64,000 nt of DNA from Erysipelotrichaceae bacterium. Its GTDB lineage: Bacteria > Bacillota_I > Bacilli_A > Erysipelotrichales > Erysipelotrichaceae. The stretch spans positions 17,306-81,305 of the forward strand of contig JAISTR010000021.1 of the NCBI GenBank assembly GCA_031272515.1, read 5' to 3'. Positions 5,600 to 22,018 of the stretch are shown here, piece after piece. Position 1 is the stretch's first letter; each line of letters begins with the position of its first letter. The translations under genes were made by a program, and so were the position numbers. The notes under the pieces were generated by a model. The model searched no databases, was not told the DNA's origin, and saw only the letters and a program-made list of their open reading frames with translations.

Positions 5600-5750
5600 C
5601 TCCAAACAGCCGGCACTGCCGGCTGTTTTGTGAAAAAGGATGAAATACAATCAAGCGGATACTGATGGACAGTGGGTCATGATAGAATATGGATGGAATC
5701 AAAAAAGAGATCTTGCAAAACGATCAAACCCAAACTGAGAGGAGATCCAC

Positions 5751-6104
5751 ATGAGTAACACTGAACGCATTTACAGCATGCCGTTTTCCGATGTCTATCC
5801 GCTGCTGGTGGCGAAAGCCGAAAGAAAGGGGAGGACCAAGGACGAAGTCGATACCGTCATCTATTGGCTGACCGGCTATGATGAAGCCGGACTCAAGGAA
5901 CAGCTGGATTTAGAGGTGGACCACAGGACCTTCTACGGGCAGGCTCCCAGAATCAACCCCAATGCCAGCCTGATTACCGGGGCGGTGTGCGGCGTCCGGG
6001 TGGAGAGCATCGAGGATCCTTTGATGCAAAAGATCCGCTGGCTGGACAAGCTGGTGGATGAGCTTGCGAAAGGCAAAAAAATGGAGAAGATTCTGCGAGG
6101 GTAA
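5751..6104 (+). CDS. DUF2200 family protein
   Basis: N-terminal [30 protein letters not shown]...WLTGY pattern resembles DUF2200. Confidence 0.5.
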
Positions 6105-6106
6105 AC

Positions 6107-6559
6107 ATGGCGATGATTTATACGGATTTAACCCGCAGGGCCCTAAAGATTGCCTATCAAGCCCATCATGGACAAACTGATAAAACCGGACTGCCCTACA
6201 TCTTTCATCCTCTGCACTTGGCGGAGCATATCGGGGAGGATGAAATTCTGATTGCGACCGCGCTCTTGCATGATGTGGTGGAGGATACCGGCATGACCTT
6301 TGGTGATTTAGAAAAGCAGAAAATACCGCCAGAAGTGATAGAAGCCTTGAAGCTGTTAACCCACCGCAAGGACCTTGATTATCTGGACTATGTCCGCCTG
6401 ATTCGCGACAGCCATAATCAGACCGCCATCAAAGTCAAGCTGGCGGACCTGCGCCATAACAGTGATGTCAGCCGGATGCCCGTGTTGGATGATGGGGCAA
6501 AGTCCCGGCTAAAACAATACCAGGCGGCATTGGCAATACTTTGCGAAGGTGAAAAATAA
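6107..6559 (+). CDS. stand-alone HD-domain guanosine polyphosphate hydrolase-like protein (small alarmone hydrolase, SpoT/Mesh1-type)
   Basis: HHGQTDKTGLPYIFHPLHLA ... ALLHDVVEDT is the RelA/SpoT hydrolase-domain signature. Only 150 aa, no synthetase domain. Confidence 0.7.
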   Translation: MAMIYTDLTRRALKIAYQAHHGQTDKTGLPYIFHPLHLAEHIGEDEILIATALLHDVVEDTGMTFGDLEKQKIPPEVIEALKLLTHRKDLDYLDYVRLIRDSHNQTAIKVKLADLRHNSDVSRMPVLDDGAKSRLKQYQAALAILCEGEK

Positions 6560-7013
6560 AAGGGGAATCATGAACATCAATGCGGAAATCAGACAACAGC
6601 TCGATCAGCTGAATCAAAAAATTGAGATTGTTGAGGTGGACAGATTAACTGACATCCTGGAGACCACTTTTTCTTTCAAAGGCTCCAAGATCGACTGGTC
6701 CAAAACCGTTTCTCACCAATACCGAAAATACGACATTCGCGATTCTTCCTTGAAGGATATCCTGGCGTTTGTAAAGCAGCCTGATCTATATGAGTACATC
6801 CAAAACAGCGAAAAAATCTGCTACCTGAATGACGGCCAGCTGGATTTTGGTCTGAGCTTTTCACCTGATGCCTTTTTTGAAATGGTGCAGCTGCTTTTAA
6901 AACAGATCCCGACACACCATTATTTTTTTAGTGCATCTCCTGATTGGTGTCTGGCCATTACTATGGAAGGCGATATGGATTTTAGCTTGGCGCCAGAGAA
7001 AGTGCATGAATAA
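6549..7013 (+). CDS. hypothetical protein
   Basis: ORF translationally coupled to its neighbours (overlapping start/stop). No recognised motif. Confidence 0.45.
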   Translation: MKNKRGIMNINAEIRQQLDQLNQKIEIVEVDRLTDILETTFSFKGSKIDWSKTVSHQYRKYDIRDSSLKDILAFVKQPDLYEYIQNSEKICYLNDGQLDFGLSFSPDAFFEMVQLLLKQIPTHHYFFSASPDWCLAITMEGDMDFSLAPEKVHE

Positions 7014-7224
7014 AATCAAACCCGGTATCTACCGCCACTATAAGGGGAACCTTTATGAGGTCATCGCCATCGCGAAGCACAGTGAAACCCTGGAAGAGCT
7101 GGTCGTATACAGGGCCTTGTATGACGAAGGCAAAATCTGGGTAAGACCTTGCTCTATGTGGGAAGAACTGGTGGAAGTAAACGGGAAAACAGTAAAGCGA
7201 TTCACCTTGCTAGAAGGGAAATGA
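7006..7224 (+). CDS. DUF1653 family protein
   Basis: IYRHYKGNLYEV...LVVYRALY...WVRP pattern. Start placed at internal ATG 7006, which overlaps the upstream stop. The ORF-track start 6931 looks like a spurious 5' extension. Confidence 0.6.
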   Translation: MNKIKPGIYRHYKGNLYEVIAIAKHSETLEELVVYRALYDEGKIWVRPCSMWEELVEVNGKTVKRFTLLEGK

Positions 7225-7274
7225 AAAAAGAAGAGCAGAGAATAACAGCTTAATCACAACAGGAGGAACCGGGT

Positions 7275-7682
7275 ATGTGGAAGTGTCCAAATTGCGGCAG
7301 AGAATTCCAACATCAAGAGCAGAGCCATTATTGTAATCGCCCCACAGAATCGATAGAAGCTTATATTGAAGCCCAGGATGAAAAGCTGCAGCCGCGCTTG
7401 CGGGAAGTCTATGCGCTGATCAGACAAGTGCTTCCCGAAGCAAAAGAGAAAATCTCCTGGCAGATGCCAACCTTCTGGCAGGGTCGAAATCTGATTCACT
7501 TCGCCGCCTTTAAAAAACATATCGGCTTATTCCCGGGCGGGGAGGCCACGGGTGTGTTTGCGGATAAACTGAAGGACTACAAGACCTCCAAGGGCGGGAT
7601 TCAGCTTCCCAATGACAAACCCCTGCCTGTTGAATTGATTGTTGAAATTGCGAAATGGTGCGGGGTGAACAACCGCCTATGA
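7275..7682 (+). CDS. DUF1801 (YdhG-like) domain protein
   Basis: ISWQMPTF / HFAAFKKHIGLFPG pattern of DUF1801. Confidence 0.6.
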   Translation: MWKCPNCGREFQHQEQSHYCNRPTESIEAYIEAQDEKLQPRLREVYALIRQVLPEAKEKISWQMPTFWQGRNLIHFAAFKKHIGLFPGGEATGVFADKLKDYKTSKGGIQLPNDKPLPVELIVEIAKWCGVNNRL

Positions 7683-8233
7683 GTGATGATTGGCTTTTGG
7701 ATGTGCGGGAGCGCCAAAAACGCAAGTGCCAGATTCTCTTTACAAAAACCAATCCGTTATTAAACGACCTCAAAGCGTTCTTGAATCAGGCTTCCCATCA
7801 GGCGATTATACTTTGGGCATTGGAGCTGGCTGGACCTGTGGTCGAGGATTTGCGGGATAAGTATCCCCGACAGAACCGGCCTCTTTTAGCCTATCAGGCA
7901 GCGGTTGGCTGGGCGAAGGGCAAGATCAAAATGCCGGACGCAAAACGGGCGATTTTGGATTGTCACGGGCTTGCGAAAGAGTTGAGTGAGCCAACCGACA
8001 TCGCCCTTTGCCATGCGGTGGGGCAGGCTTGCAGCTGTGTGCATACCGCAGGGCATGCGCTTGGCTTTGTGATGTATGAACTGACTTCCATCGTTTTTAG
8101 TTTCCCCGAAAATATGTGGCCTGCAGCCTGTCCAGTTTGGGTGCGTTATTATGAGGACCGCCTGAAATATTGGATGGCGCACTATGACCGCTCCCCCTGG
8201 ACCTGGGCTGGGTTTTTACAAACCCAATCATGA
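7679..8233 (+). CDS. hypothetical alpha-helical protein
   Basis: ATG 7679 overlaps the upstream stop (ATGA). No catalytic motif recognised. Confidence 0.45.
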   Translation: MSDDWLLDVRERQKRKCQILFTKTNPLLNDLKAFLNQASHQAIILWALELAGPVVEDLRDKYPRQNRPLLAYQAAVGWAKGKIKMPDAKRAILDCHGLAKELSEPTDIALCHAVGQACSCVHTAGHALGFVMYELTSIVFSFPENMWPAACPVWVRYYEDRLKYWMAHYDRSPWTWAGFLQTQS

Positions 8234-8255
8234 AAAAACCGGAAGGATTCCGGTT

Positions 8256-9221
8256 TTAATGGCTTAGTTTTTCATCCAGCGTTTTCACGCTTTTGATGAG
8301 TAAATCAATGAAGGCTTCACGGTTGATCCCAATGCCGTTTTTGGTATTGGGTTTGATTTTGTAGAGCTCCGTATAGTCACGGGCAATGACGGTTTTACCG
8401 ACGGTCAGCTCGCCCTGGGTATCCACATCCACCTCCACCTCCTCCACTTCAATCAAGGAGGGATCAATCATATAGGTTGCCGCTACCGCATCGCAAAGGA
8501 TTCCGCCTTTGGCACCCCTGGCCAGACCGAAGTCCACCCGCCTTGTTAGCAGGTCGGCGGTGACATTGGCGATGATGCCTGTACCATCACCGCGGATGGC
8601 TTTCAGATCATCCGGGGAAACATAGGCCATAAAGCAGATTTCCAGGGCCATCATCACCATCGGGACTTTGGCATTGAAGACAATCTTCGCAGCTTCCGGG
8701 TCCGCCCAGATGTTAAACTCAGCGGCAGCCGTCCAATTGCCCAGACCGGCAGCACCACCCATGATTACCACCTGTTTGATAAGCTTTGGCAGCTCTGGAA
8801 AAAGCAGGAAGGCCTTGCCCAGATTAGTCAGGGGGCCCACCGCCAGAATCTCCAGCTCATGGGGGTATTTTTTCGCCATTTCATAGATGAACTCCCAGGC
8901 ATAGGTGTCCTGGGTTTGAATCTTTGGCTCGGGCAAAACCACAGGGCCCAGTCCGGTATTGCCATGCACATTGCCGGCGGTGCGCACACCTCTGGCCATG
9001 GAGCGGTCTGCTCCCTTATATACCGGAATTTCCGTATGTCCGGTCAATTCCAATAAGCGCAGGGCATTCTTTTCGCAATAAAGCAAAGTCTTGTTGCCGC
9101 AGACCGGCGTGATGCCCAAGAGTTCAAACTGTTGGCTCGCCAGCATCATAAACATGCAGACGGCGTCATCCTCACCCGGATCGCAATCCAGAATCACCGG
9201 ACGCTTTTTGATGTCACTCAT
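8256..9221 (-). CDS. inosine-uridine preferring nucleoside hydrolase family protein
   Basis: N-terminal DCDPGEDDAVCMFMM (DXDXXXDD) Ca-binding/active-site motif. Confidence 0.85.
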   Translation of the reverse strand: MSDIKKRPVILDCDPGEDDAVCMFMMLASQQFELLGITPVCGNKTLLYCEKNALRLLELTGHTEIPVYKGADRSMARGVRTAGNVHGNTGLGPVVLPEPKIQTQDTYAWEFIYEMAKKYPHELEILAVGPLTNLGKAFLLFPELPKLIKQVVIMGGAAGLGNWTAAAEFNIWADPEAAKIVFNAKVPMVMMALEICFMAYVSPDDLKAIRGDGTGIIANVTADLLTRRVDFGLARGAKGGILCDAVAATYMIDPSLIEVEEVEVDVDTQGELTVGKTVIARDYTELYKIKPNTKNGIGINREAFIDLLIKSVKTLDEKLSH

Positions 9222-10153
9222 GCCTGTTCCTCCGCTTTTGCCAATATGGCTTCGATTTTGTCCAAATACAACTGTAAATCCAAATCCATGATGGCCTGAT
9301 GCTGTTTGTCTTTGTCATAGAGGTCATCCCCGTCATTTTTGCGCACCGATAACAAAGTGGCACCTGTGCAAAGAGCGGAAGCAGTCTCGATGGAAATCGT
9401 GCCTTTAAGCCCTGTAAAGATTTGTGGGTAAAGCAGATAGAGGACCGGAATCGTATCATAGAGAATACTGCCGTTAAAAGAACCGTGCTGCCGGTAGCTC
9501 CAGGAGCGCTTTAAAAGATATTGGAGCATCTTTGCGTATTTGTTTTGATAGGAAAAATAGCGCTGACCGGCTTCTTGGGTAATCACCGCCTTATGGCAGA
9601 CATCCAGTCCGCAAAGGACCACCGGAACATCAAAGCCAAACACAATCTGCGCCGCTTCCGGGTCCGCATAGAAGTTGAGCTCGGCAGCACCGGTGGTATT
9701 GCCGCTGGCAATGCCGCCGCCCATCAAAACAATCCGCTCCACTTTCTCGCGCACCAGATCCGGATAAGCCAGGATTACTTTCGCAATGTTGGTCAAAGGT
9801 GCCAAAGGCACCAGGGTCACCGGTTCACTTGCCCCTGCAAGTTTTTGGTGATAAAAGGACAGCAGGTCAAGACCGACGGGTGGGGTCAGTTCTTTGTCGG
9901 TTTCTAACAGATCTTTACCATTGGGATTTCCCACCCATTTTTGCCTGACCAAAGGGACATCACTGCCGGCACAAAGGTCCACGCACGCTTGCAGCTCTGC
10001 CAACAACAGCTGGGTATTGCGGGTGGTCTGTGCCAGTTCCAGGTTGCCAAGACAAGTGCTGATGCCCAGAACTTCCAGGTCACTGCTGGCTAAGGCCAGG
10101 GTGATCGCCGCGGCGTCATCGCCGCCGGTATCGCAGTCAATCAGTATTTTCAT
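9218..10153 (-). CDS. nucleoside hydrolase family protein (tandem paralog)
   Basis: DCDTGGDDAAAITLAL motif. 4-nt overlap with the downstream paralog. Confidence 0.85.
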   Translation of the reverse strand: MKILIDCDTGGDDAAAITLALASSDLEVLGISTCLGNLELAQTTRNTQLLLAELQACVDLCAGSDVPLVRQKWVGNPNGKDLLETDKELTPPVGLDLLSFYHQKLAGASEPVTLVPLAPLTNIAKVILAYPDLVREKVERIVLMGGGIASGNTTGAAELNFYADPEAAQIVFGFDVPVVLCGLDVCHKAVITQEAGQRYFSYQNKYAKMLQYLLKRSWSYRQHGSFNGSILYDTIPVLYLLYPQIFTGLKGTISIETASALCTGATLLSVRKNDGDDLYDKDKQHQAIMDLDLQLYLDKIEAILAKAEEQA

Positions 10154-12212: not shown

Positions 12213-12404
12213 AACCAAACAAACAGGCAGATGTGATTCTGCCTGTTTTTCTTTGCCCAAATCACTCCATAATGTGGGAGAAAATCCGGTCCAAAACCCG
12301 AATGAATGAGGTTTCATTCGACCATGCCGAAAACTGCGATTTTGTATCCGTTTTCAGGCTTTTTTCCGTTGTATTGTTCTGCGGCCTTTGATATAGTGGA
12401 AGCG

Positions 12405-12477
12405 TGTTTAATACTAGCCAGATATAATGCCGTAATATGGTCGGCAGTCTCTACCAGACACCGTAAATGTCTGACTA
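12405..12477 (+). promoter_or_regulatory. purine riboswitch aptamer, guanine-type
   Basis: P1 CUAGCCAGAUA/UACUUGGCUAG (one A-C mismatch), J1/2 UAAU, conserved CUACC and ACCGUAAAUGUC.GAC, with C at the ligand-specificity position. Sits in the 5' leader of the NCS2 permease gene. Confidence 0.8.
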
Positions 12478-12581
12478 CTTGGCTAGTTTCCTTTTTTGGA
12501 GGCTGGAGGACTCGCAAACAGGAACCTGCCACTCTTTTGGTTCTAGTATTACAACACTGGAAAGAAAGAGGAAACCATAAT

Positions 12582-13952
12582 ATGAACAACTTTTTCAAGC
12601 TGAAGGAGAACAACACCTCCTTCAACACGGAGCTCATGGCCGGATTGACGACATTTTTTACCATGAGCTACATCCTGATTGTCAATCCCACCATCCTCGG
12701 CGAATCCGGCTTAGCCTGGGGAGCGGTATTTCTGGCGACCGTGTTCGCCTCCGCCATCGGTACCCTGGTCATGGGGCTGTTTGCGAATGTGCCTTACGCT
12801 TTGGCGCCGGGCATGGGTATCAACGCCTTCTTTACCTACACCATCGTCTTTACCCTGGGCTATACACCCTATGAAGGTCTGGCGATGGTTTTTATTTGCG
12901 GGCTCATCAATATCTTTATCACCACCACCAGAATCCGCAAGCACATCATCAAGGCGATTCCGGAATCCCTGCAGCACGCAATCGGCGGGGGCATCGGCAT
13001 CTTTATCGCCTACATCGGCTTATTGAATGTTGGGCTGATCAACTTTGGCGCCGGGGTCCCGGCATTGGCCGCCTTTGATAATCCGGTTGCGGTTCTGACC
13101 TTAATCGGACTGTTTGTCACGGTCGTGCTTTTGATTCTCAAAGTGAAAGGGGCGATGTTAATCGGCATCATCACTGCCACCATCGTCGCCATTCCTTTGG
13201 GACTGGTGAACTTCTCCAGCGTCAGCTTTGACTTGTCGGTCTACAGCGGCTACTTTGGTGAGCTGGGCAATGTCTTTGCGAAGTGTGTAACCGATGGCAT
13301 TCCCTCGCTGTTTGCGGATCCGGCCCGGTTTGGATCGGTCTTTGCGATCATCTTCTCCTTCTCCCTGACGGATACCTTTGATACCATCGGCACCTTCATC
13401 GGTACCGGCCGGCGCTCTGGCATCTTCTCGGCCGAGGATGAGAAAGCCCTGGAGGAGGGCAAGGGCTTCTCCTCAAAGATGGACAAGGCGCTGTTTGCGG
13501 ATGCGATTGCGACTTCCATGGGGGCTTTCTTGGGAACTTCCAACACCACGACCTACGTCGAGTCGGCTGCTGGTATTGAAGCTGGCGGGCGCACCGGTTT
13601 GACTTCGGTGGTGGTCTCCATCTGTTTCCTTTTGAGCATTCTGCTCTCACCGATTATCTCGCTGATTCCCTCAGCCGCTACCGCTCCGGCCCTGATTATT
13701 GTCGGGGTCTTGATGATTGCCTCCTTCAAGGATGTGAAGTGGGATAACTTCGAGGAAGCACTGCCGGCATTTTTTGCGGGTACGATGATGGCCTTGGCAT
13801 ACAGCGTTTCGGAAGGCATCGCCCTGGGCTTTATTTTCTACCTGGTGGTACAGGTGGTAAAAGGCAAGGCGAGCCAGGCACACCCGATTCTGTGGGTCTC
13901 CTCCCTCTTGTTTGCGGCCAACTATCTGCTCAAAGCATTGGGCATGTCCTAG
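12582..13952 (+). CDS. NCS2 family nucleobase permease (guanine/hypoxanthine permease, PbuG/AzgA-like)
   Basis: Start set at ATG 12582 after the AGAGGAAACC RBS. The 5' part of the ORF-track entry (12306-12581) is the riboswitch leader, not coding. Confidence 0.85.
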   Translation: MNNFFKLKENNTSFNTELMAGLTTFFTMSYILIVNPTILGESGLAWGAVFLATVFASAIGTLVMGLFANVPYALAPGMGINAFFTYTIVFTLGYTPYEGLAMVFICGLINIFITTTRIRKHIIKAIPESLQHAIGGGIGIFIAYIGLLNVGLINFGAGVPALAAFDNPVAVLTLIGLFVTVVLLILKVKGAMLIGIITATIVAIPLGLVNFSSVSFDLSVYSGYFGELGNVFAKCVTDGIPSLFADPARFGSVFAIIFSFSLTDTFDTIGTFIGTGRRSGIFSAEDEKALEEGKGFSSKMDKALFADAIATSMGAFLGTSNTTTYVESAAGIEAGGRTGLTSVVVSICFLLSILLSPIISLIPSAATAPALIIVGVLMIASFKDVKWDNFEEALPAFFAGTMMALAYSVSEGIALGFIFYLVVQVVKGKASQAHPILWVSSLLFAANYLLKALGMS

Positions 13953-14063
13953 AAAAAAACGACAATTAAATACCCAAAAGGCAAAATGTGAGGCATTTTG
14001 CCTTTTGTTGTGAAAAATTTTTCGCACGGTTTATGGTATAACCATGCCACAGAGGAGGTGTGT

Positions 14064-14735
14064 ATGGGTACTACTGCACAACCGATGGTAAAAATGATTT
14101 TCGGTTTTCAAGGTTATGCCTCTGATGCGGTGGCTTATTGCTGTTATCGTGGCCATCCCGGAAACCTGAACAAGACACTATTGGAAAATCAGGAATGCAT
14201 CAAGAAAAATTGCAGACACCTGAAAAAGACTCAAAACGAGTTCTGGTACTCGATGGCGTCCACCGTACAGGTCATCCGAAAGATTTTAAAAAGGGGGAAT
14301 GCTGGTAAAACGCTGACTGATTTATGCATTATCAAGGGCATTGGTCCAAAGACCAAAGAAAAGTTAAGGCAAATCGGCTATTGGTGGGTGGAGGATTTGT
14401 ATGGTTCTTCCTATCGGGAAGTCTATCGCAAATACCTGCGCTTGACCAAAAAGAAATCCGATGTGAAAGTACGGGAGGCTTTGTTGTTAGTGAAAAAAGA
14501 GGCGGATCGTCTGGGAAAAGCCATGGAGCAGCAGCTGCCTTCAAAAAAAAGAGAGAAGGCTGCTTCTTCTTTGAAAGCTGGATTATCAGGCAAAGAAAAG
14601 CGTTATTCCAAAAAGAGCTTTCCAAAAAAGAAAAAACAAAAACCCAGACACTCCGGCTTACGCTTCAGCAATGCAGACCACTATGATTTATGGAAACTGA
14701 ATTATCCGCCCGAAAAAAGCTATGACAGGGCATGA
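14064..14735 (+). CDS. hypothetical helix-hairpin-helix protein with Lys-rich C-terminal tail
   Basis: HhH motif LTDLCIIKGIGPKTKEKLRQIGY. KK-rich low-complexity C-terminus. AGAGGAGG RBS before ATG 14064. Confidence 0.5.
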   Translation: MGTTAQPMVKMIFGFQGYASDAVAYCCYRGHPGNLNKTLLENQECIKKNCRHLKKTQNEFWYSMASTVQVIRKILKRGNAGKTLTDLCIIKGIGPKTKEKLRQIGYWWVEDLYGSSYREVYRKYLRLTKKKSDVKVREALLLVKKEADRLGKAMEQQLPSKKREKAASSLKAGLSGKEKRYSKKSFPKKKKQKPRHSGLRFSNADHYDLWKLNYPPEKSYDRA

Positions 14736-14842: not shown

Positions 14843-16186
14843 TCAGGTCTTTTTGATTGATAAGACCAGATTCAAGACAATACCGGCAACCGAAGCCGTC
14901 GCAATCGCCGGCAGGGAGAAGGAGCCGATGGGGATGTTGCTGCCCGAAAAACCATAGGAGCCGCCCAGTCCGATAATCAGAATCACAGCGATGATTGCCA
15001 GATTCTTGGCATCAAACATATCGACACCCTTATTGATTAAAATCGCAATCCCCTGTGCCCCAATTACCCCGAACAGGTAGATGCAGGCACCGTTGATAAC
15101 CGGACCGGGAATCGAATTGACGAAGTTGGTCAGGGGACTGAAGAAGGAAATAATCATGGTGATGATGGCCGCTGCACCCAAAACCCAGACACTGAAGTTA
15201 TGGGTGATGGCCATGGTGGAAAGGTTTTCGCCATAATTGGTTCCCGCCGGACCACCGATGGCCGCGGAGATCATATCGCCCAGACCGTCACCGATTAAAT
15301 TGATGCCCAAACGCTTTTCAATATCGTATTTGGGTTTGCCTTTCTTTTTGGCCAGGTCATTGACATAGATGTCCAGCTGAAACAGGTGGGCGGTGGATTC
15401 CGGAATCGTCGCAATCGCAATCGGCATGATGGCGATCACAGCCGCCAGGTTGGGAACCGGCAGGGTGAAGTGCGGTGCAGTCACCAGATTGCCTTGAAAC
15501 AGGGTCGCCAGTTTGGTTTGAAGCCCGATGTCTCCGGCACCGGTGTAGTTGAGCAATAACGAGAGCAGATAGCCAACCAGGATACCCAATAAAATAGGGA
15601 CTTGTCCCAAGATCCCTTTTTTCAAAAATACCGAGAATGCAACTGTAGAAACCAGGGTCACCACCGCAATGATGGCGGAAGTGGTGTTGGTTCCGCTGGC
15701 ATCCACCGCAAAGGCGGAAGTCATGGCGGATCCGGCCAGGGAGATACCGATGACCATGGCGATGGCACCGGTGATGGTCGCTGGCAGAATCTTGTCAATT
15801 TTGTCCTGACCGAAACGGTCGATGATAATCCCGGCGGCGATGGACACCAAACCGGAAGCAATGATGCCGAATTGGGCCCTGCCAATCAGATCGTCACTGG
15901 CAACGACACCATAGCTGGCACCTGTCATCCCGACGATGGCTGAGATGTAGGAGAAGCTGGAGCCATAGTAGAGCGGCAGCTTGCCCTTGGTGACAAACAG
16001 AAAACAGAGTGTGGCCAGACCGCTGGCAAAGATGGTGGTCGAAACATGGAATCCCGTCAGCATCGCCACCGTGACCGTTGCCGGGAACATGACTAAAATC
16101 TGCTGCAGACCAAAGAGCAGGGTACGCCCCAGAGTCGGCTTCTCGTCCGGCAGATATCCGGACACCGTTTTTTCTTGTGAAGACAT
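14843..16186 (-). CDS. NCS2 family nucleobase:cation symporter (uracil/xanthine permease, PyrP/UraA/PbuX-like)
   Basis: QQILVMFPATVTVAMLTG N-terminal motif and polytopic topology typical of UraA/PbuX. Confidence 0.8.
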   Translation of the reverse strand: MSSQEKTVSGYLPDEKPTLGRTLLFGLQQILVMFPATVTVAMLTGFHVSTTIFASGLATLCFLFVTKGKLPLYYGSSFSYISAIVGMTGASYGVVASDDLIGRAQFGIIASGLVSIAAGIIIDRFGQDKIDKILPATITGAIAMVIGISLAGSAMTSAFAVDASGTNTTSAIIAVVTLVSTVAFSVFLKKGILGQVPILLGILVGYLLSLLLNYTGAGDIGLQTKLATLFQGNLVTAPHFTLPVPNLAAVIAIMPIAIATIPESTAHLFQLDIYVNDLAKKKGKPKYDIEKRLGINLIGDGLGDMISAAIGGPAGTNYGENLSTMAITHNFSVWVLGAAAIITMIISFFSPLTNFVNSIPGPVINGACIYLFGVIGAQGIAILINKGVDMFDAKNLAIIAVILIIGLGGSYGFSGSNIPIGSFSLPAIATASVAGIVLNLVLSIKKT

Positions 16187-16300: not shown

Positions 16301-16462
16301 TAGCAGAAGGTCTTGGTGATAGCTTAACAAATTCACCCATAATTCTGAAAATTTTATTCAAACAAAATTTCCTGTCACTTCTGCCGTTTTTTTCTCATCT
16401 TTGTGCAATTTTCAGAATTGCTTTTTTACGGTAAACGGTTTTGGGTTTATAATACTGTAGTT

Positions 16463-17857
16463 ATGATACGTAAGAATTCCAAAAAAGAACTCAGTGCCCA
16501 TCGCATGGGCACGATGGATATCCATCGCTTATTAATAACACTGTCGGTCCCCATGATGACTTCCATGGCGGTCCAGGCTCTCTATAACATTGTCGACAGC
16601 ATCTATGTGTCCCATATCGATACCAAAGCCCTGGCTGCGGTATCACTGGCCTTTCCTTTGCAAAGCTTGATGCATGCCTTTATGAACGGAACCTGCATCG
16701 GCGTGAACTCCTATCTCTCCCGAAGCTTAGGGGCCAAGGATTATTCTGCGGTCCGCAAGACCGCAGCCCATGGCATCATGCTTTGTATCTTTGCCTGGCT
16801 GATGTTTATCGGTGTGGGCCTGGGTTTTGGGGCCACCTATTTCAAGGCTTTGACCAATGATCCGCAAATCATCCAGTACGGGATAACCTATGTCCAGATT
16901 GTTTTGCCGTTTTCCATCGGCTCCTTTCTGGCAATGATGACGGAGCGGATGCTGGCGAGTACCGGCAATACCTTCTATGCGATGATTGCTCAGGTTTCCG
17001 GGGCAGTCACCAATACCATCCTCGATCCGCTTTTAATCTTTGGTTTATTGGGATTTCCCAAAATGGGCATGGCCGGTGCTGCCATCGCCACCGTCATTGC
17101 CCAAAGCCTGGCTGCTGTAATTTCCTTGTATTTCAACTTCACCCGCAACAAGGACATCGATTTGTCCTTCAAGGGTTTCCGGGTGGACTTTCATATCATC
17201 AAGAAAATTTACCAGGTGGGCTTGCCGAGCATGCTGATGAACTCGGTGGACTCCTTCATGTTTTATTCGATGAACAAGATTCTGATTGGCTTCTCAACGG
17301 TAGCGACCACCATCTTTGGCGTTTATTACAAATTGCAGAGCTTCTTCTTTTTGCCGGTCTATGGTGTCAACTACGGCATGATTCCGATTATCGGATACAA
17401 CTATGGTGCCCGCAATGGCAAGCGGGTGTTGGATACGGTACACATTGCCATCCGCTATGCCATGGTTTTTATGACCCTGGGCTTTGCGGTGTTCATGCTT
17501 TTCCCGGATAAGATGCTGACGCTGTTTAATGCGGATGGGGAGATGATCAAGGTCGGATCGGTCGCCTTGAGAATCATCAGCACCCACTTTCTGCTGGCTG
17601 GCTTTTGCATCATCTTTCTGGCTGTGTTTCAAGCGATTGGCAACGGCACCCTAAGCATGGTAGCCACCGCCATGAAGCATCTTTTGTTCCGCTTGCCCAG
17701 CGCCTATTTTCTGGCCTCGTTTGGGGATGTGAATCTGGTCTGGTGGTGCTGGCTGATTTCGGAAGCAGGCTCCTTGCTGTTCTGCAGTATTTTCTACTTC
17801 CATATCGTGAAGAAGGAAATGAAGTCATTCCCATTACCGCAGACTGCCGAAAGCTGA
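16463..17857 (+). CDS. MATE family efflux transporter
   Basis: 12-TM protein with duplicated MATE halves. Start uncertain (no clear RBS). Confidence 0.8.
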   Translation: MIRKNSKKELSAHRMGTMDIHRLLITLSVPMMTSMAVQALYNIVDSIYVSHIDTKALAAVSLAFPLQSLMHAFMNGTCIGVNSYLSRSLGAKDYSAVRKTAAHGIMLCIFAWLMFIGVGLGFGATYFKALTNDPQIIQYGITYVQIVLPFSIGSFLAMMTERMLASTGNTFYAMIAQVSGAVTNTILDPLLIFGLLGFPKMGMAGAAIATVIAQSLAAVISLYFNFTRNKDIDLSFKGFRVDFHIIKKIYQVGLPSMLMNSVDSFMFYSMNKILIGFSTVATTIFGVYYKLQSFFFLPVYGVNYGMIPIIGYNYGARNGKRVLDTVHIAIRYAMVFMTLGFAVFMLFPDKMLTLFNADGEMIKVGSVALRIISTHFLLAGFCIIFLAVFQAIGNGTLSMVATAMKHLLFRLPSAYFLASFGDVNLVWWCWLISEAGSLLFCSIFYFHIVKKEMKSFPLPQTAES

Positions 17858-17906
17858 TTGGCAAGACAAAGTCAGGACATTTTAGTTCAGAAAAAGGAAT
17901 GGATAC

Positions 17907-17943
17907 AGGTAAAAGCCGGGCGGACAGCCCGGCTTTTACCTGT
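17907..17943 (+). terminator. rho-independent terminator downstream of the MATE gene
   Basis: Perfect hairpin GGTAAAAGCCGGGC-GGAC-AGCCCGGCTTTTACC. Confidence 0.7.
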
Positions 17944-17973
17944 ATAATAGAAGCAGAAGAAGGAGAATCAAAC

Positions 17974-19062
17974 ATGGACTTTCACAAAACGTATCATGAA
18001 GAGGAAAAGTTGTATTTAGCCGGACCGGAATGTTTTTATCCGGATGGCCGCAAGAAGCTGCAGTCAATGAAACTGCTGGCAGAGTCCTATGGCTTTGGGG
18101 TATCATTGCCCAATGACAACAAGCTGGACATGAGCAATGAAGATGTCCGCAAGAATGCGGACAACATCTTTGAAAACTGTGCTGTAAGCATCGACATCAC
18201 CACCGCCATCCTGGTGGACCTCGAGCGCTTTCGCGGCAGTGAACCGGATGGGGGCTCCATCTATGAGCTGGGCATGGCTTATGCCCGCGGCTGCCGCTGC
18301 TATGGCTATACCCGGGATTTGCGTCCGGTATATCGCAAATATGATGGGGCAATGCTCAAAGACGGGGTTGTCTATGACCGGGATGATAAAGAGTTGGCTT
18401 ATCCCGAACTGCCGTTTTCACCCAACATCATCGGTTCCTCTAAAGTGATTGAAGGGGATTTGGATGACTGTCTGAAGCTGTTGATGCTGGATATCAAGGA
18501 AGAACGCAAAGCCGGGATCACCCGCACTTACCTGGATGAGAAACCGGGACCCAAAAACAAGAAGGCCAAGACGATTTATCTGTCCCTTTCAAACCGCTAT
18601 AGTGAGAATAAAGGAGCTTATGAAAAGCTGGAAGCCTTGGCGAAGGAAGCAGGGTACAAACTGGTCATTTCCGCAATCCCCAAAAAGCTTGCCGGCATCA
18701 AGGATGTTTATCGGCAGGCTGCTGAAATCTTCGCGCAAAACGAGAAGGCGGTGAAAGACAGCGACATCTGCCTGTTTGACCTCAACGACTATCATGGCTG
18801 GGAACCAAACAGCGACGTTGCCTTTGAAGCGGGGATGGCCTGGCAGCTTGGCAAGAAGTGCTTTGGCTTTATGGGCGACAATTCCAATATGCGCACCCGG
18901 ATTCCCCACTATGATGACAAGCTGGAGAATCGTGACTGGCATGGCAATGATGTGGAAAACTTCAACTATCCGCTAAACCTGATGTTTTCCTCCTCGATGC
19001 CGATTTTTGGGGGCGATGTGACGGCAGCCTTCAAGCAGGTACTCAAACATATCAGCCGTTAA
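17974..19062 (+). CDS. tandem nucleoside 2-deoxyribosyltransferase-like (NDT/Rcl-fold) two-domain protein
   Basis: Two copies of the D.G(S/T).(Y/F)E.GMA motif (DGGSIYELGMAYARG and NSDVAFEAGMAWQLGKK). First domain opens KLYLAGPECF. AGGAGAA RBS 6 nt before ATG 17974. The ORF-track start 17605 is an in-frame upstream extension overlapping the MATE gene. Confidence 0.65.
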   Translation: MDFHKTYHEEEKLYLAGPECFYPDGRKKLQSMKLLAESYGFGVSLPNDNKLDMSNEDVRKNADNIFENCAVSIDITTAILVDLERFRGSEPDGGSIYELGMAYARGCRCYGYTRDLRPVYRKYDGAMLKDGVVYDRDDKELAYPELPFSPNIIGSSKVIEGDLDDCLKLLMLDIKEERKAGITRTYLDEKPGPKNKKAKTIYLSLSNRYSENKGAYEKLEALAKEAGYKLVISAIPKKLAGIKDVYRQAAEIFAQNEKAVKDSDICLFDLNDYHGWEPNSDVAFEAGMAWQLGKKCFGFMGDNSNMRTRIPHYDDKLENRDWHGNDVENFNYPLNLMFSSSMPIFGGDVTAAFKQVLKHISR

Positions 19063-19078
19063 ATAAGAAATTCCATAA

Positions 19079-19116
19079 ACAAAAAAAGCCCTGCAGGATG
19101 CAGGACTTTTTTGTTA
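19079..19116. terminator. bidirectional rho-independent terminator between convergent genes
   Basis: AAAAAAAGCCCTGCAGGATGCAGGACTTTTTTG. Confidence 0.7.
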
Positions 19117-19638
19117 GATCGTATTGTTTTCAATTGCTGGTTTGTTCAATTTGTTCAGCCAGATGAATAATCCGGTGGAAAAGAAGATGATTAACCAGTT
19201 GGGTACATTGACAAAGTAAGGGAAGAATTGCGAACCTCCATGGGGCAGTAAACTCCAGATTGGGTATAAAGGTTCGTACCAGAGATACAAGAGGCCAAAG
19301 GCAACTGTGATCGTGATGACAAACGACAGAAGCAACCGTACCGGATTTTTCTTCAGCTGTTCAAGATTCATCAGCGTAATCGCACAAAGTACCGGTGGCA
19401 AAGCCCGCAGTGCACTGGACAGATAAGGCAGCATAATTGAGGTAAAGTTATGGACGAGTTTCGCAATCCATTTGTCATAGCGGTAGAAGGCAATGCTGCA
19501 GGCAAAACACAACAGCAGACAGACAACAACTCCAATGATTACGGATATTTCCTTTCTTTTCAAACCAGAAAGCTTTGTAAACATAACAATCATCCTTTCT
19601 TGCAGAGGTTCCTGCAATTCCAGCATAATGCGAATCAA
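19114..19638 (-). CDS. hypothetical membrane protein
   Basis: Several predicted TM helices. Start uncertain. Confidence 0.5.
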   Translation of the reverse strand: MIRIMLELQEPLQERMIVMFTKLSGLKRKEISVIIGVVVCLLLCFACSIAFYRYDKWIAKLVHNFTSIMLPYLSSALRALPPVLCAITLMNLEQLKKNPVRLLLSFVITITVAFGLLYLWYEPLYPIWSLLPHGGSQFFPYFVNVPNWLIIFFSTGLFIWLNKLNKPAIENNTI

Positions 19639-19782
19639 TTCACAAAATCAATAGAATTTCCGGTTTGAAAGACCGGCTTAAGAAATTATTAAGTAACGCC
19701 AGGTTGGCTTTAATGATTTGTTAAAAAACAAGTGATTGCAGCCTATAAAAAAACCCTCTGTTACAAGGGTTTGTGTGTTTTC

Positions 19783-19860
19783 TGGGGCGATCGACGGGAC
19801 TCGAACCCGCGAGTGCTAGAGCCACAATCTAGTGTGTTAACCGACTTCACCACGACCGCC
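19783..19860 (-). tRNA. tRNA-His (GTG)
   Basis: Cloverleaf with anticodon loop UUGUGGC. Extra 5' G(-1) opposite discriminator C. T-loop TTCGAGT. CCA encoded. Confidence 0.9.
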
Positions 19861-19970: not shown

Positions 19971-20780
19971 ATGACAAAACCGGTTGTGTTCATCGATATT
20001 GACAATACCCTGGTTCCGGTGATGGAAACCATCTCTGCCAAAAACCTGCAGGCACTCAAGGACTTTATCGCCTGGGGCGGTCATCCGGTCTTTGTGTCCG
20101 GCAAACTGCCGGTTGCACTCTTTGGCTTGTTGGATCAGCTCGACCTGGATGACAGCGACCATATCGGTGCCAATGGCGGCATCCTCTACAACAAAGCAAA
20201 AAACCAATATCAGATTTTGGCCAAGTGCGGTTTACCAAGCCAGGCCATCAATGAAAGGGCAGCCCAACTGCGTTTGACCTGCTACCTGTTCTATCAGGAT
20301 GAGGTGGTTGCCTCCGCCAAAAACCTTGACCCTTATGAAATCAAATACCTGAGTACATTGGGAGACCCGGTTCCCCATCACAGCAACCACATCCACTTTG
20401 AACAAATCATCAAAATCCTGTTTTTCGTAAACCAGAATGATACAGATACCGAAACCAGGGTGCGTGAAGCGATGGCTGGATTATTGGACAGTCTGCACTT
20501 TGTCCGTACCGGTGCTGCCTTATTGGAAATCCATCATGACAAGCAAACCAAGGCGACCGGAGTCAGGGCTTACTGTGAGAAACACCAGATTGATCTAAGG
20601 GACACCTATGCCATCGGCGACAGCGAAAATGACCTTTCCATGCTGGAGCTGGTAGGGCATCCCTATATGATGGCCAACTCCTCACGGATTGTAAAAGAAA
20701 AAGGCTACCCCGAACTTCTTTCCTGCAAGCAGGATGGGGTTGCCTCTTTGCTATATCAGCTTATCGCTTCAGATCAATAA
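19971..20780 (+). CDS. HAD-IIB (Cof-type) family phosphatase/hydrolase
   Basis: FIDIDNTLV motif I and GDSENDLSML motif IV. Confidence 0.8.
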   Translation: MTKPVVFIDIDNTLVPVMETISAKNLQALKDFIAWGGHPVFVSGKLPVALFGLLDQLDLDDSDHIGANGGILYNKAKNQYQILAKCGLPSQAINERAAQLRLTCYLFYQDEVVASAKNLDPYEIKYLSTLGDPVPHHSNHIHFEQIIKILFFVNQNDTDTETRVREAMAGLLDSLHFVRTGAALLEIHHDKQTKATGVRAYCEKHQIDLRDTYAIGDSENDLSMLELVGHPYMMANSSRIVKEKGYPELLSCKQDGVASLLYQLIASDQ

Positions 20781-21858
20781 TCTGCTCCCAGGGGAATTCA
20801 CTTCTTCCGAAGTGTCCGAAGTTGCTGGTCGCCCGGTAGATGGGACGCTTTAAGTCCAGGGAGTCGATGATATTGGCGACCGAGAAATCGAAGTTGTTTT
20901 CGATGATTTTTAGAATCGCTTCATCAGAAACGGTTCCGGTACCAAAGGTTTCAATTTCCACCGACAGCGGTTTGGGCATGCCGATTGCATAGGAGACTTG
21001 AATCTCAAAGCGCTTGGCCAATCCGGCAGCTACGATGTTTTTAGCCACATAGCGGCAGTAGTAGGCGGCGCTGCGGTCGACTTTCGAAGGATCTTTTGAG
21101 CTTAAGCAGCCGCCGCCAATCCGGCCATGGCCGCCATAGGTATCCACGACAATCTTGCGGCCGGTGGTGCCGCTGTCCCCAAAGGGACCGCCAACAACAA
21201 AGGAGCCGCTGGGGTTGATGAAAAACTTGGTGTCTGCATGGATCAGAGCCGGCGGTACCACCGGGGTGATGACCTTTTCGATAATATAGTCACGCAAGGT
21301 CTCTTGGGTGATGCTGGCCTCATGCTGAGCCGAGACGACAATGGAGTCCAGATAGGCAATCTTTTTGTCCTGGTAGGTGACTGTGACCTGGGTCTTGCCA
21401 TCCGGTTTCAAAATCGCTTCGCTTTGTTCTTTGTATACTTTTGTAAGCTGTCTGGACAATTGATGGGCCAGTGATATGCTTAAAGGCATATAGCCTTTGG
21501 TCTCATCACAGGCATAGCCAAACATAATCCCCTGGTCCCCGGCACCCAAGCTTTCGCGGTTGACCACCGCCGCATCGATTTCGGCAGATTGCTTCGAAAT
21601 CTTTACCAGCACCTCAAAGTCTTCAAAATAGCCGATGTCCTTGAGCACCGCTTTGGCAATGGCTGGATAATCCAGCACCGCCTTGGTTCCCGCTTCTCCA
21701 TACAACAAAACAAAATTGTCCTTGATGGTGGCTTCCACCGCCATGTGGGCTTCGCGATCCTGACGCAAAGCCTCATCCAGGATTGCATCCGCAATCTGGT
21801 CACAGACTTTGTCCGGATGTCCCGGGGTAACCGATTCACTCGTAAAATACGTTTTCAT
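20761..21858 (-). CDS. metK: S-adenosylmethionine synthetase
   Basis: FTSESVTPGHPDKVCDQIADAILD and GGGCLSSKDPSKVDRSAAY signature motifs. Confidence 0.9.
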   Translation of the reverse strand: MKTYFTSESVTPGHPDKVCDQIADAILDEALRQDREAHMAVEATIKDNFVLLYGEAGTKAVLDYPAIAKAVLKDIGYFEDFEVLVKISKQSAEIDAAVVNRESLGAGDQGIMFGYACDETKGYMPLSISLAHQLSRQLTKVYKEQSEAILKPDGKTQVTVTYQDKKIAYLDSIVVSAQHEASITQETLRDYIIEKVITPVVPPALIHADTKFFINPSGSFVVGGPFGDSGTTGRKIVVDTYGGHGRIGGGCLSSKDPSKVDRSAAYYCRYVAKNIVAAGLAKRFEIQVSYAIGMPKPLSVEIETFGTGTVSDEAILKIIENNFDFSVANIIDSLDLKRPIYRATSNFGHFGRSEFPWEQIIDLKR

Positions 21859-21876
21859 GTTTTCCTCCTCCTTTTT

Positions 21877-21906
21877 GAAAAAACATCTCTAAGAAAGAGA
21901 TGTTTT
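21877..21906 (-). terminator. intrinsic terminator in the metK leader (riboswitch expression platform)
   Basis: 11-bp perfect stem AAAACAUCUCU/AGAGAUGUUUU, loop UUCUU, U tract, immediately 5' of the metK RBS AAAGGAGGAGG. Confidence 0.7.
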
Positions 21907-21929
21907 ATGGGAAGTTAAACATGCACTTT

Positions 21930-22018
21930 CTTATCGATTTTGGCTTTACCACCTTGCGGGATGATGCAGGTTGGTACGAGTTCACAGAGCCAAATCTCTC
22001 CCTCGTTCGTGATAAAAT
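21930..22018 (-). promoter_or_regulatory. probable SAM-I (S-box) riboswitch aptamer
   Basis: Minus-strand order of S-box landmarks UUAUCA ... GAGGGA ... AACC ... GGUGGUAAAGCC ... AUCGAUAAG, upstream of metK. Secondary structure not fully resolved by eye. Confidence 0.5.

Follow-up and report, generated by a model that had tools for sequence, protein, structure and literature searches.

A fused pair of nucleoside 2-deoxyribosyltransferase domains in an Erysipelotrichaceae genome as a probable single-chain pseudo-heterodimer with one composite active site

The window, the 64,000-nucleotide stretch of DNA analyzed here, contains a forward-strand gene for a 362-aa protein with two nucleoside 2-deoxyribosyltransferase (NDT) folds, together with the features collected in Table 1. 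The MATE gene, the two nucleoside hydrolase genes, the riboswitch-preceded permease gene and the second NCS2 permease gene that a preliminary description of this DNA had placed nearby are all confirmed in the window. An ORF listing of the region gives a 485-aa frame with a TTG start (17605..19062), and the remark in that description that the listing masks the gene by an overlapping 5′ extension is correct, because the ribosome-binding site, an identical 362-aa protein on record and the starts of homologs all fit the ATG at 17974. The identical protein (100%) comes from an Erysipelotrichaceae MAG, and the N termini of homologs fall at residue 1 of the 362-aa protein or just beyond; the true start is this ATG, and the stop codon occupies 19060-19062. 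Judging from their sequences, the hairpin between the MATE gene and the NDT gene likely terminates the MATE transcript, and the hairpin 3′ of the NDT stop codon is likely a bidirectional terminator. The local G+C at the gene is 0.48-0.51 against 0.42-0.54 nearby, which is ordinary for the surroundings, and we rejected a foreign origin on this ground.

Table 1. Features of the tandem NDT gene, its product and its neighborhood in the window
Feature	Position	Strand	Basis
Two tandem IU-nucleoside hydrolase genes (IU_nuc_hydro)	8256..10153	-	PF01156, 278 and 218 bits; window searched by tblastn with partner-type hydrolases
Purine riboswitch ahead of Xan_ur_permease gene	12400..12497		
Second Xan_ur_permease gene	14843..16186	-	
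MATE gene	16403..17857	+	Neighbor annotation
G+C-rich hairpin between MATE gene and NDT gene	17903..17945	.	Terminator-like site, 19 pairs; sequence
Promoter-like site CGGACA-16-TATAAT	17921..17948	+	Consensus scan, 10/12 matches; pattern match only
Ribosome-binding site AGGAGA	17961..17966	+	7 nt 5′ of ATG; read from sequence
Gene for 362-aa tandem NDT-fold protein	17974..19062	+	ORF and sequence; PF05014 twice; 100% identical database protein P0001
N-terminal NDT domain, aa 12-176, with site 1 cis residues Y14, C69 (neighbor N68), D92, E98	18007..18501	+	Pfam 66.8 bits; conservation; 99-sequence alignment; AF2
Inter-domain linker, aa 177-198	18502..18567	+	Low pLDDT; homolog insertions
C-terminal NDT domain, aa 199-362, E285 retained, own pocket remodeled	18568..19059	+	Pfam 57.2 bits, full profile; conservation
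ENFNYPLNLM segment, aa 328-337, with E328, N335, M337	18955..18984	+	Aligned to NDT trans residues; all three 120/120
Hairpin with A and T runs on either side, 3′ of stop codon	19082..19112	.	Terminator-like on both strands

In Pfam, the whole protein matches PF05014 in two stretches (E = 8e-35). Run separately, each half is assigned to the same family above its gathering cut-off of 28.8 bits, with 66.8 bits (E = 2.5e-18) for aa 1-180 and 57.2 bits (E = 2.3e-15) for aa 190-362, which bears out the two NDT-fold domains that had been read in the chain. The alternative that the halves belong to the LOG, TIR or SLOG families, raised in the preliminary description, found no Pfam match at E ≤ 1 for either half. 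The alignment of the N-domain spans 104 of the 117 profile positions, the C-terminal part with the trans loop being absent, and that of the C-domain spans all 117. As had been noted, both copies keep the conserved Glu: Glu98 lies in the motif at aa 92-106 (DGGSIYELGMAYARG; codon 18265-18267) and Glu285 in that at aa 279-295 (NSDVAFEAGMAWQLGKK; codon 18826-18828), each retained in 120/120 homologs, the set over which all conservation counts were taken. The differing starts of the two copies were also read correctly, with KLYLAGP at aa 12-18 and IYLSLSN at aa 201-207, and the halves are 25% identical to one another. An AF2 model of the whole chain (pLDDT 92.5, pTM 0.93) implies a confident single rigid body with a fixed domain arrangement. 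In this model, the secondary structure of the N-domain runs from E12-16 to H163-179, and the linker has a pLDDT of ~76 versus >90 elsewhere. Linker length and sequence vary across the aligned family, with homolog insertions of up to ~60 aa.

An ordinary NDT works as a homodimer, and each site combines a Tyr, an Asp or Asn, an Asp and the Glu nucleophile of one subunit with three residues on a loop of the partner: an acid, an Asn and a Met. The catalytic unit of NDTs is a dimer with composite sites (PMC12372993; PMC10913048), and in LmPDT the site consists of Tyr8, Asn56, Asp79 and Glu85 together with Glu121#, Asn128# and Met130# (bioRxiv 10.1101/2024.11.29.626018). We assigned residue equivalences from a 99-sequence alignment that included TbNDT, LlNDT and other single-domain proteins related to them. 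In the N-domain, Y14 (kept in 119/120) is equivalent to LlNDT Tyr7, the N-terminal Tyr responsible for positioning the Glu; D92 (120/120) is the Asp six residues before the Glu, corresponding to LlNDT Asp92 and LmPDT Asp79, whose role is to bind the 5′-OH of the sugar; and E98 aligns with the Glu nucleophile (LlNDT Glu98, LmPDT Glu85). The trans residues are found in the C-domain, where E328, N335 and M337, all three without exception among the homologs, align with TbNDT E119/N126/M128, LlNDT N123/M125 and LmPDT Glu121#/Asn128#/Met130#.

At the helix position next to the nucleophile, where the NDT family has Asp or Asn, site 1 carries a Cys. This position 69, equivalent to LlNDT Asp72 and LmPDT Asn56, is Cys in 108 and Leu in 12 of the 120 homologs, and residue 68 (Asn in 106, Asp in 12) covaries with it. 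We rejected N68 itself as the Asp72/Asn56 equivalent: that pairing came from a pairwise phmmer alignment to 2A0K with a 7-residue gap, and both a 15-sequence and the 99-sequence alignment give C69. Among NDT homologs, Asp and Asn make up ~93% at the Asn56 position, with Cys at 4.6% and Leu at 0.2%; a change there alters what the LmPDT site accepts (bioRxiv 10.1101/2024.11.29.626018). Directed evolution of the Leishmania enzyme for arabinosyl transfer selected Cys or Leu at this very position. C69 is an unusual variant within the NDT family and no ground for exclusion from it. Since site 1 departs from the canonical set at C69, the substrates or sugars that it accepts could differ from those of the classical 2′-deoxy-specific enzymes.

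The reciprocal pocket, site 2, displays a different pattern of conservation. Six residues of the C-domain, E285, D281, E277, D264, R208 and D321, are each found in 120/120 homologs, and H259, R261 and C263 are kept in >85% of them. Y202 is present in the 362-aa protein, and Tyr occupies this position in 102/120 homologs. Positions 256, 262 and 279 vary: position 256 is Asn here and N/Y/W/Q in the family, and position 279, that of the Asp before the Glu, is likewise Asn here, with N43/D32/E21/S18 among the 120 homologs. In the N-domain, the positions that correspond to the trans triad, A142, S149 and N151 in this protein and P/A, S/A/C and N/S/C/A in the family, are unconserved, and therefore only one site is complete. 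Site 2 is especially degenerate in the 362-aa protein, which has changes at family-conserved pocket positions (AGP to SLS at 204-206, P233S, Q257E, H259A, R261K, C263S and C286A) and no counterpart of the conserved Asp after P233. Because the trans triad is lost, cis positions vary and family-conserved residues are changed in this protein, site 2 has probably been reduced to a remnant that serves structure or ligand binding. The invariance of E285, R208, D264, E277, D281 and D321 argues that the second pocket has some role, at least in the family. Of the earlier suggestion of two non-equivalent sites, the non-equivalence stands, given the asymmetric conservation across 120 homologs, and the idea of two working catalytic sites is not favored, given the lost trans triad and the remodeled pocket.

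By both sequence and fold, the closest solved relatives of both halves are TbNDT/TbPDT (PDB 2A0K) and LmPDT (PDB 6QAI). A profile built from 20 C-domains finds TbNDT and LmPDT in the PDB at E ~1e-19, and a fold search comparing single chains gives a TM-score of 0.83 normalized to 2a0k. The likeness to the trypanosomatid enzymes extends to the cis Tyr, the Asp six before the Glu and the Glu nucleophile, the trans loop V-E-x-F-x-x-P-x-N-L-M, a TRDxRxMxxKY-type insertion after strand 4 and, as we picture it here, the pair of NDT folds that makes up the catalytic unit. The trypanosomatid proteins, however, are homodimers of ~150-160 aa subunits with two identical sites, whereas here one 362-aa chain has the full residue set at one site. 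LlNDT, CtNDT (8PQ*), DpNDT (7O62) and EfPDT (7M5H) have in common with the 362-aa protein, as we picture it, the PF05014 fold, a covalent glycosyl-Glu mechanism and composite sites across the dimer interface, but these bacterial NDTs (from L. leichmannii, C. thermalis, D. psychrophila and E. faecalis) are hexameric or tetrameric, with single-domain subunits arranged as trimers or dimers of dimers. DNPH1/Rcl likewise shares the fold, the Tyr-Glu pair and, if our picture is right, a dimeric composite site, but it has Ser/Ser at the NDT Asp/Asn positions, takes nucleotide substrates and only hydrolyzes them; its phosphate contacts are Ser98 and Ser128′ (PMC10483697).

The reading that we favor, with moderate confidence, is that the gene product is a single-chain pseudo-heterodimer of the NDT family with one canonical composite site. 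The fused subunits would have specialized. The N-domain would provide Y14, D92 and the nucleophile E98 in cis, with C69 in the place usually taken by Asp or Asn; the trans loop would come from the C-domain, with E328 acting as acid toward purine N7, N335 serving the 5′-OH, and M337. Together, these residues would build one site like that of the trypanosomatid purine deoxyribosyltransferases, while the second site would retain its Glu (E285) with its trans triad gone. That the domains pack like an NDT dimer is our inference, as are the chemistry and the substrates, and it is homology and conservation that would place the C-domain loop in the N-domain pocket. Most likely, the N-glycosidic bond of a purine (2′-deoxy)nucleoside would be cut via a glycosyl-Glu98 intermediate, and the sugar would then be handed to another base or to water, within nucleoside scavenging.

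At least 178 species genomes, the majority from Lachnospiraceae, Oscillospiraceae and Christensenellaceae, encode full-length fused homologs (44-53% identity), and all of these homologs are annotated just as "nucleoside 2-deoxyribosyltransferase". The NDT-NDT fusion is a stable architecture: both halves are covered by 120 of the 120 best protein matches and at 80 of 80 genome loci, and the separate genes that the preliminary description had considered for orthologs are not what we observe there. Short matches to one half exist in the metagenome library (P0142, P0154, P0163 and others). They give no sign that the halves are routinely encoded apart: P0163 (L081/L082), the entry traced, is the C-terminal part of a frameshifted fused gene with the N-domain just upstream in another frame. 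P0141 appears frameshifted, P0148 and P0145 begin inside the N-domain, and the remaining one-half entries look like fragments or frameshifts. A literature search on tandem, fused or pseudodimer NDTs found no paper on the fused form and no solved structure of it, and the form is not mentioned in PMC12372993, PMC10913048 or bioRxiv 10.1101/2024.11.29.626018. With so many genomes carrying the architecture under a generic NDT annotation, it is less surprising than had been implied; the fused design is a conserved variation on a well-known enzyme rather than a novel type of system.

In relatives, the gene keeps consistent company. In 63/73 other loci, the gene directly upstream (-4 to 163 bp), within a nucleoside-catabolic operon, is an IU_nuc_hydro gene, and genes for PNP, phosphopentomutase, adenine deaminase and ribokinase-like proteins also occur in the vicinity. 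The operon partners include ADP-ribosylglycohydrolase, a PfkB-type kinase, SIS, YjbQ and IU-hydrolase, as well as xylose-isomerase-like TIM-barrel and 5-FTHF-cyclo-ligase-like proteins. Among the partners submitted to NCBIfam, only YjbQ and phosphopentomutase reached a cut-off, and the SIS, PfkB-type kinase, IU-hydrolase, TIM-barrel and 5-FTHF-cyclo-ligase-like proteins received no specific name. Literature on yegU/yegV gave no useful lead to the operon, and that on NDTs with ADP-ribosylglycohydrolase and nucleoside hydrolase gave nothing on the fused form. Here, the NDT gene is monocistronic and stands outside the conserved operon; the local hydrolase genes lie 8 kb away on the opposite strand, not adjacent to it, and their products share a superfamily with the conserved partner type but are only 27-32% identical to it. 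The operon link seen in relatives speaks for the reading favored above; as the gene in this genome lies outside such an operon, that support is indirect. In the other loci, a hydrolase is found near the NDT gene in 68, a MATE homolog in 2 and an NCS2-permease homolog in 1. The nucleoside-salvage context proposed from this window thus holds family-wide for the IU-hydrolase link and fails for the MATE/NCS2 association, and the proposed survey of co-occurrence across genomes is positive for nucleoside hydrolase and negative for MATE. A role in detoxification, which had also been put forward, or in export is without comparative support because the MATE and NCS2-permease neighbors are unconserved.

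Both pockets might instead be working catalytic sites of different specificity, the first a classical nucleoside site and the second remodeled for another N-glycoside, perhaps a 5′-phosphorylated one, a reading that we consider unlikely. The invariant E285 and the C-domain-specific R208, D264, E277, D281 and D321, along with the largely retained H259, R261 and C263, are in keeping with it. The helper-domain Glu has been lost in other fused NDT families and is therefore unneeded for folding, R208 at Tyr+6 resembles Arg30 in the DNPH1 phosphate loop, and the Ser, Ala or Cys at the N-domain trans-Asn position recalls DNPH1 Ser128′. Against these points, site 2 has no trans triad, its Tyr is replaced in 15% of homologs, two further cis positions vary freely, pocket residues conserved in the family are altered in this protein, and the C-domain profile retrieves NDTs, not DNPH1, from the PDB. 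Compared with the Ser pair of DNPH1, site 2 offers N279 and S149, so that the trans Ser alone is matched. It is similarly improbable that the second pocket is, family-wide, a distinct functional site which, with a ribo-/arabino-sugar tolerance given by Cys or Leu at site 1, would yield a bifunctional single-chain enzyme. Such a pocket could catalyze a second reaction or act as an allosteric sensor, its ligand being another N-glycoside or a 5′-phosphorylated compound, and the latter could be one processed by the conserved operon (ADP-ribosylglycohydrolase, PfkB kinase, SIS, YjbQ, IU-hydrolase); if so, the substrate range would be unlike that of classical 2′-deoxy-specific NDTs.

A hydrolytic side reaction is intrinsic to NDTs, and the protein could act mainly as a (deoxy)nucleoside N-glycosidase, supplying catabolism with sugar and base rather than exchanging bases and complementing the IU-nucleoside hydrolase, an enzyme that requires a 2′-OH. 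The catabolic operon of most genomes, with hydrolase, phosphorylases, phosphopentomutase, deaminases and kinases, would suit this role, as would the Cys or Leu beside the nucleophile where Asp or Asn is usual. We nevertheless regard it as rather unlikely: the transfer residues of the trypanosomatid enzymes are all present, no known sequence feature separates hydrolase from transferase in this fold for nucleoside substrates, and the conserved loci hold no recognizable deoxyribose-specific downstream enzyme such as DeoC. A DNPH1/Rcl-like 2′-deoxynucleoside 5′-monophosphate N-glycosidase would explain the shared fold and Tyr/Glu pair, and DNPH1 structures are among the weaker fold matches (E ~1e-3), but the conserved site has Asp92 and Asn335, a nucleoside-type pair, and sequence searches with the whole protein and with the C-domain profile both miss DNPH1, making this very unlikely. 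Because site 1 has D92 and N335 rather than Ser/Ser, the substrate would be a nucleoside and not a 5′-nucleotide. A DNPH1-like C-domain was also rejected, as the profile of 20 C-domains retrieves no DNPH1 even at E ≤ 10. Finally, NDT-like folds turn up repeatedly in conflict systems, which might suggest that the protein has a non-metabolic role in a defense or toxin system, as a sensor or effector of the NDT-like, SLOG-like or TIR-like kind. We give this hardly any credence, as no PADLOC model matched, Pfam gives PF05014 alone for both halves, the neighbors in 80 genomes are metabolic rather than defensive, and the local G+C is ordinary.

NDTs are workhorse biocatalysts for the synthesis of nucleoside drugs, and to our knowledge every characterized NDT is a homo-oligomer with active sites across identical subunits, so that any mutation affects both sides of each site. 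If the protein is indeed a single-chain pseudo-heterodimer, nature would have separated a "catalytic" from a "helper" half, offering a monomeric scaffold for asymmetric engineering and a clear case of subfunctionalization after gene fusion. The Cys or Leu that site 1 carries naturally sits at the position chosen when the Leishmania enzyme was evolved for arabinosyl transfer. In addition, the gene is closely paired with one for an IU-nucleoside hydrolase, in an operon that many Clostridia of the human gut carry, which points to a route of nucleoside scavenging that is as yet unstudied. The finding leaves the understanding of the enzyme class unchanged; among gut anaerobes the fused design is conserved yet unstudied, and its two copies most likely build one normal active site.

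Other fused NDT-NDT proteins are present in the metagenome library (the P0159/P0185/P0195 group and P0251), with ~350-370 aa and two NDT folds. In these more distant proteins, too, one domain is catalytic and the other retains the donated N-L-M loop, a split of roles that fits the favored reading, but the order is reversed, with the helper first, and the helper Glu is replaced by Asp, Thr or Asn. Their identity to the 362-aa protein is just 22-34%, suggesting independent fusions, and such specialization seems to have arisen more than once.

The 362-aa window protein, a tandem nucleoside 2′-deoxyribosyltransferase (NDT)-fold polypeptide, is listed among the mechanically called ORFs solely as the 3′ portion of a longer frame (485 aa, TTG start), bearing out the remark in the preliminary description that an overlapping 5′ extension masks the gene. 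Its ATG is the credible start because it is preceded by a ribosome-binding site and a promoter-like site, the gene is flanked by hairpins (the second, with T-runs, lies 3′ of the stop codon), and an identical 362-aa protein is already on record from an Erysipelotrichaceae MAG. Given this start and the flanking hairpins, the gene looks monocistronic.

Features of the tandem-NDT gene and its surroundings (positions in the window)
Feature	Position	Strand	Detail
Xan_ur_permease ORF as listed	12306-13952		548 aa
Purine riboswitch	12400-12497		
ORF between two permease genes	13998-14735	+	245 aa
Strong hairpin	17903-17945		between MATE gene and tandem-NDT gene
Promoter-like site	17921-17948		CGGACA-16-TATAAT, upstream of tandem-NDT gene
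Ribosome-binding site	7 nt upstream of ATG 17974	+	AGGAGA
Tandem-NDT gene	17974-19062	+	362 aa, ATG start 17974
Codons for aa 68-69	18175-18180		
Hydrophobic ORF with following tRNA gene	19114-19859	-	ORF 174 aa; tRNA gene 19786-19859
SAM riboswitch with S-adenosylmethionine synthetase gene	20761-22018	-	riboswitch 21928-22018; gene 20761-21858

Pfam matched PF05014 (Nuc_deoxyrib_tr) twice in the protein, and each half scanned alone scored well above the 28.8-bit threshold (N half, 66.8 bits, E = 2.5e-18; C half, 57.2 bits, E = 2.3e-15). The match is end-to-end on the C-domain and covers 104 of 117 profile positions on the N-domain, where the trans-loop end is missing. Glu98 lies in the first NDT motif (aa 92-106) and Glu285 in the second (aa 279-295), so that the two tandem domains described earlier, each with its motif and glutamate, are confirmed; the unrelated flavodoxin-like families LOG, SLOG and TIR were absent from the Pfam matches.

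A search of 5.8 billion proteins returned 434 matches, the best 120 of which are all 343-410 aa long and 44-53% identical to the window protein, with a query coverage of 87-100% (≥94% in all but one); the named entries among these 120 read only "nucleoside 2-deoxyribosyltransferase". When a single genome was scanned for each species, 178 species proved to have a relative; at every one of the 80 top-ranked loci, the match extends over both halves. These loci belong mainly to Lachnospiraceae, Oscillospiraceae and Christensenellaceae, with some Treponemataceae/Spirochaetaceae MAGs and Actinomyces urinae. With about 25 full-length representatives at 50% clustering, the fused NDT is a conserved family and not an accident, and because the identity between the two halves of the window protein is only 25%, the fusion is old. 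The halves were not found to be routinely separate genes: of the short matches that resembled stand-alone halves, the one that could be traced, the metagenome library protein P0163, was rejected, as both its loci carry a fused gene whose linker is frameshifted. In these high-G+C metagenome contigs (L081, 3479-4561, and L082), the gene lies downstream of an IU-hydrolase gene, and the frameshift causes the C-domain to be called as a separate 186-aa protein. Contigs from two or more sequencing runs share the split state, which reflects a genuine split or pseudogene or else a recurrent assembly error.

The best sequence matches of both halves are the dimeric NDT of Trypanosoma brucei (TbNDT, 2A0K) and the Leishmania mexicana enzyme LmPDT (6QAI). 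The AF2 model is confident (pLDDT 92.5, pTM 0.93), its sole soft region being the linker at approximately aa 181-198. Foldseek against the PDB ranked 2A0K first (target-normalised TM 0.83), followed by 6QAI and then the C. thermalis and D. psychrophila NDTs, with DNPH1, a 2′-deoxynucleoside 5′-phosphate N-hydrolase, as a weak match; no solved chain spanned both domains (best query-normalised TM 0.38). The catalytic unit of NDTs is always a dimer, with sites built from both chains (PMC12372993; PMC10913048). In LmPDT, Tyr8, Asn56, Asp79 and Glu85 act in cis, and the partner subunit donates Glu121#, which protonates purine N7, Asn128# and Met130# (bioRxiv 10.1101/2024.11.29.626018). Whereas the NDTs in the literature consulted are dimers, tetramers or hexamers of single-domain subunits, the window protein places two domains on one chain. 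Our literature and structure searches found neither a paper on nor a solved structure of a fused NDT; such proteins are numerous and already labelled NDT, and their fold and chemistry are known.

To map residues, we used a 99-sequence alignment of family N- and C-domains, single-domain relatives, TbNDT and the L. leichmannii enzyme (LlNDT, in a sequence that agrees with the published residue numbers). Site 1 combines N-domain cis residues with the C-domain trans loop; site 2 is the reciprocal pocket.

Residues at the two sites (counts over 120 homologues)
Position	Site 1	Site 2
Tyr	Y14, 119/120	Y202; Tyr 102, Phe 13, Leu 5
Helix Asp/Asn position	C69; Cys 108, Leu 12	256; Asn, Tyr, Trp, Gln, Cys or Phe
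Asp at Glu-6	D92, 120/120	279; Asn 43, Asp 32, Glu 21, Ser 18
Glu nucleophile	E98, 120/120	E285, 120/120
Trans acid	E328, 120/120	Pro/Ala
Trans Asn	N335, 120/120	Ser/Ala/Cys
Trans Met	M337, 120/120	Asn/Ser/Cys/Ala

The simplest reading of this pattern is a pseudo-heterodimer, covalently joined, that has a single canonical composite active site; the N-domain would be the "catalytic" half and the C-domain the "helper". Four other fused NDT-NDT proteins from the metagenome library (P0159, P0185, P0195 and P0251), which share 22-34% identity with the window protein, are specialised in a like manner but with the domains in reverse order: in the first, Asp, Thr or Asn replaces the Glu nucleophile and the donated N-L-M loop is kept, and the second keeps the Glu and has lost N-L-M. 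This pattern suggests that single-site pseudo-dimers evolved repeatedly and independently.

The C-domain pocket keeps E285 and, among the 120 homologues, its own invariant set (R208, D264, E277, D281 and D321), with Q257, H259, R261 and C263 mostly conserved, and so probably has some function in the family as a whole. The window protein departs from this pattern: it has SLS instead of AGP at 204-206, carries P233S, Q257E, H259A, R261K, C263S, A268F, C286A and G314D, and lacks the conserved Asp after residue 233, so that its own second pocket looks degenerate. A functional second site together with a non-classical sugar range, the most novel of the readings considered, seems unlikely.

Site 1 is itself not entirely textbook, judging from the alignment. 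In the fused family, the helix position of LlNDT D72 and the trypanosomatid Asn is occupied by Cys (90%) or Leu (10%), and residue 68 covaries strictly with 69 as Asn-Cys or Asp-Leu. Asn56Cys and Asn56Leu are exactly the LmPDT variants that directed evolution selected for better arabinosyl transfer, and natural homologues have Cys there in only 4.6% and Leu in only 0.2% of cases (bioRxiv 10.1101/2024.11.29.626018). The equivalent Asp62 of C. thermalis NDT adjoins the 2′/3′-OH, and D62N retains about half the catalytic efficiency. By analogy, catalysis at site 1 is plausible, and its sugar specificity may not be strictly 2′-deoxy. Asp92 and Asn335 form a nucleoside-type pair; DNPH1, which acts on 5′-nucleotides, has phosphate-binding Ser98 and Ser128′ at these positions (PMC10483697). 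Since the donated E328 also matches the purine-N7 acid of LmPDT, we favour purine (2′-deoxy)nucleosides as substrates, with the sugar passed to base or water; this and the other functional assignments are inferred from homology, conservation and gene context.

We clustered the ORFs of 80 homologous loci and annotated the clusters. In 63 of 73 other loci, the gene immediately 5′ of the fused NDT on the same strand is an IU_nuc_hydro gene, mostly at a distance of 9-23 bp, and the usual arrangement is ADP-ribosylglycohydrolase, PfkB kinase, purine nucleoside phosphorylase, SIS-domain protein, UPF0047/YjbQ, IU-hydrolase and fused NDT. A phosphorylase, phosphopentomutase, adenine deaminase, ribokinase-like kinase or MgtC often follows 3′, with ABC-transporter genes and GntR/UTRA or LacI regulators nearby. 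These neighbours firmly link the family with the catabolism or salvage of nucleosides. The operon is widespread in gut Clostridia (L001-L080, e.g. L001 1-11146, L036, L052, L061 and L063) and may hold more interest than the NDT; its ADP-ribosylglycohydrolase is approximately 700 aa and often duplicated, and its SIS-domain protein is GlmS-C-like. Of the operon members covered by an NCBIfam scan, only YjbQ and phosphopentomutase reached a cut-off, and the SIS protein, PfkB-type kinase and IU-hydrolase fell below every specific one. The fused NDT is of interest for enzyme evolution and biocatalyst engineering, and it marks an unstudied nucleoside operon of gut bacteria. In three loci (L032, L043 and L075, ~5000-10000), a YjjI-like glycyl-radical enzyme (PF11230), a radical-SAM activase and an adenosine deaminase lie upstream instead of the IU-hydrolase. 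We know of no established function for YjjI, and this nucleoside context may be a clue to it.

Within the window, the genes neighbouring the tandem-NDT gene are as previously described, and none of the conserved operon partners adjoins it. No SIS, YjbQ, PfkB, ADP-ribosylglycohydrolase or PNP homologue occurs anywhere in the 64 kb, and the hydrolase pair 8 kb away shares just 27-32% identity with the operon-partner type. The proposed nucleoside neighbourhood therefore holds in spirit, through the hydrolase link of the family, but its MATE, detoxification and permease part is unsupported: homologues occur near fused NDTs in only two other loci for MATE and one for the NCS2 permease. The listed Xan_ur_permease ORF begins upstream of the purine riboswitch and runs through it; translation must in fact start beyond the aptamer, the first residue of the Pfam match being 109. 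The ORF between the two permease genes matches PF11731 (Cdd1 "pathogenicity locus") at a borderline 24.8 bits against a cut-off of 25.5. Just downstream of the tandem-NDT gene, and convergent with it, is a hydrophobic ORF with no Pfam match, followed by a tRNA gene. Farther along, the S-adenosylmethionine synthetase gene is immediately preceded by a SAM riboswitch in the usual S-box layout.
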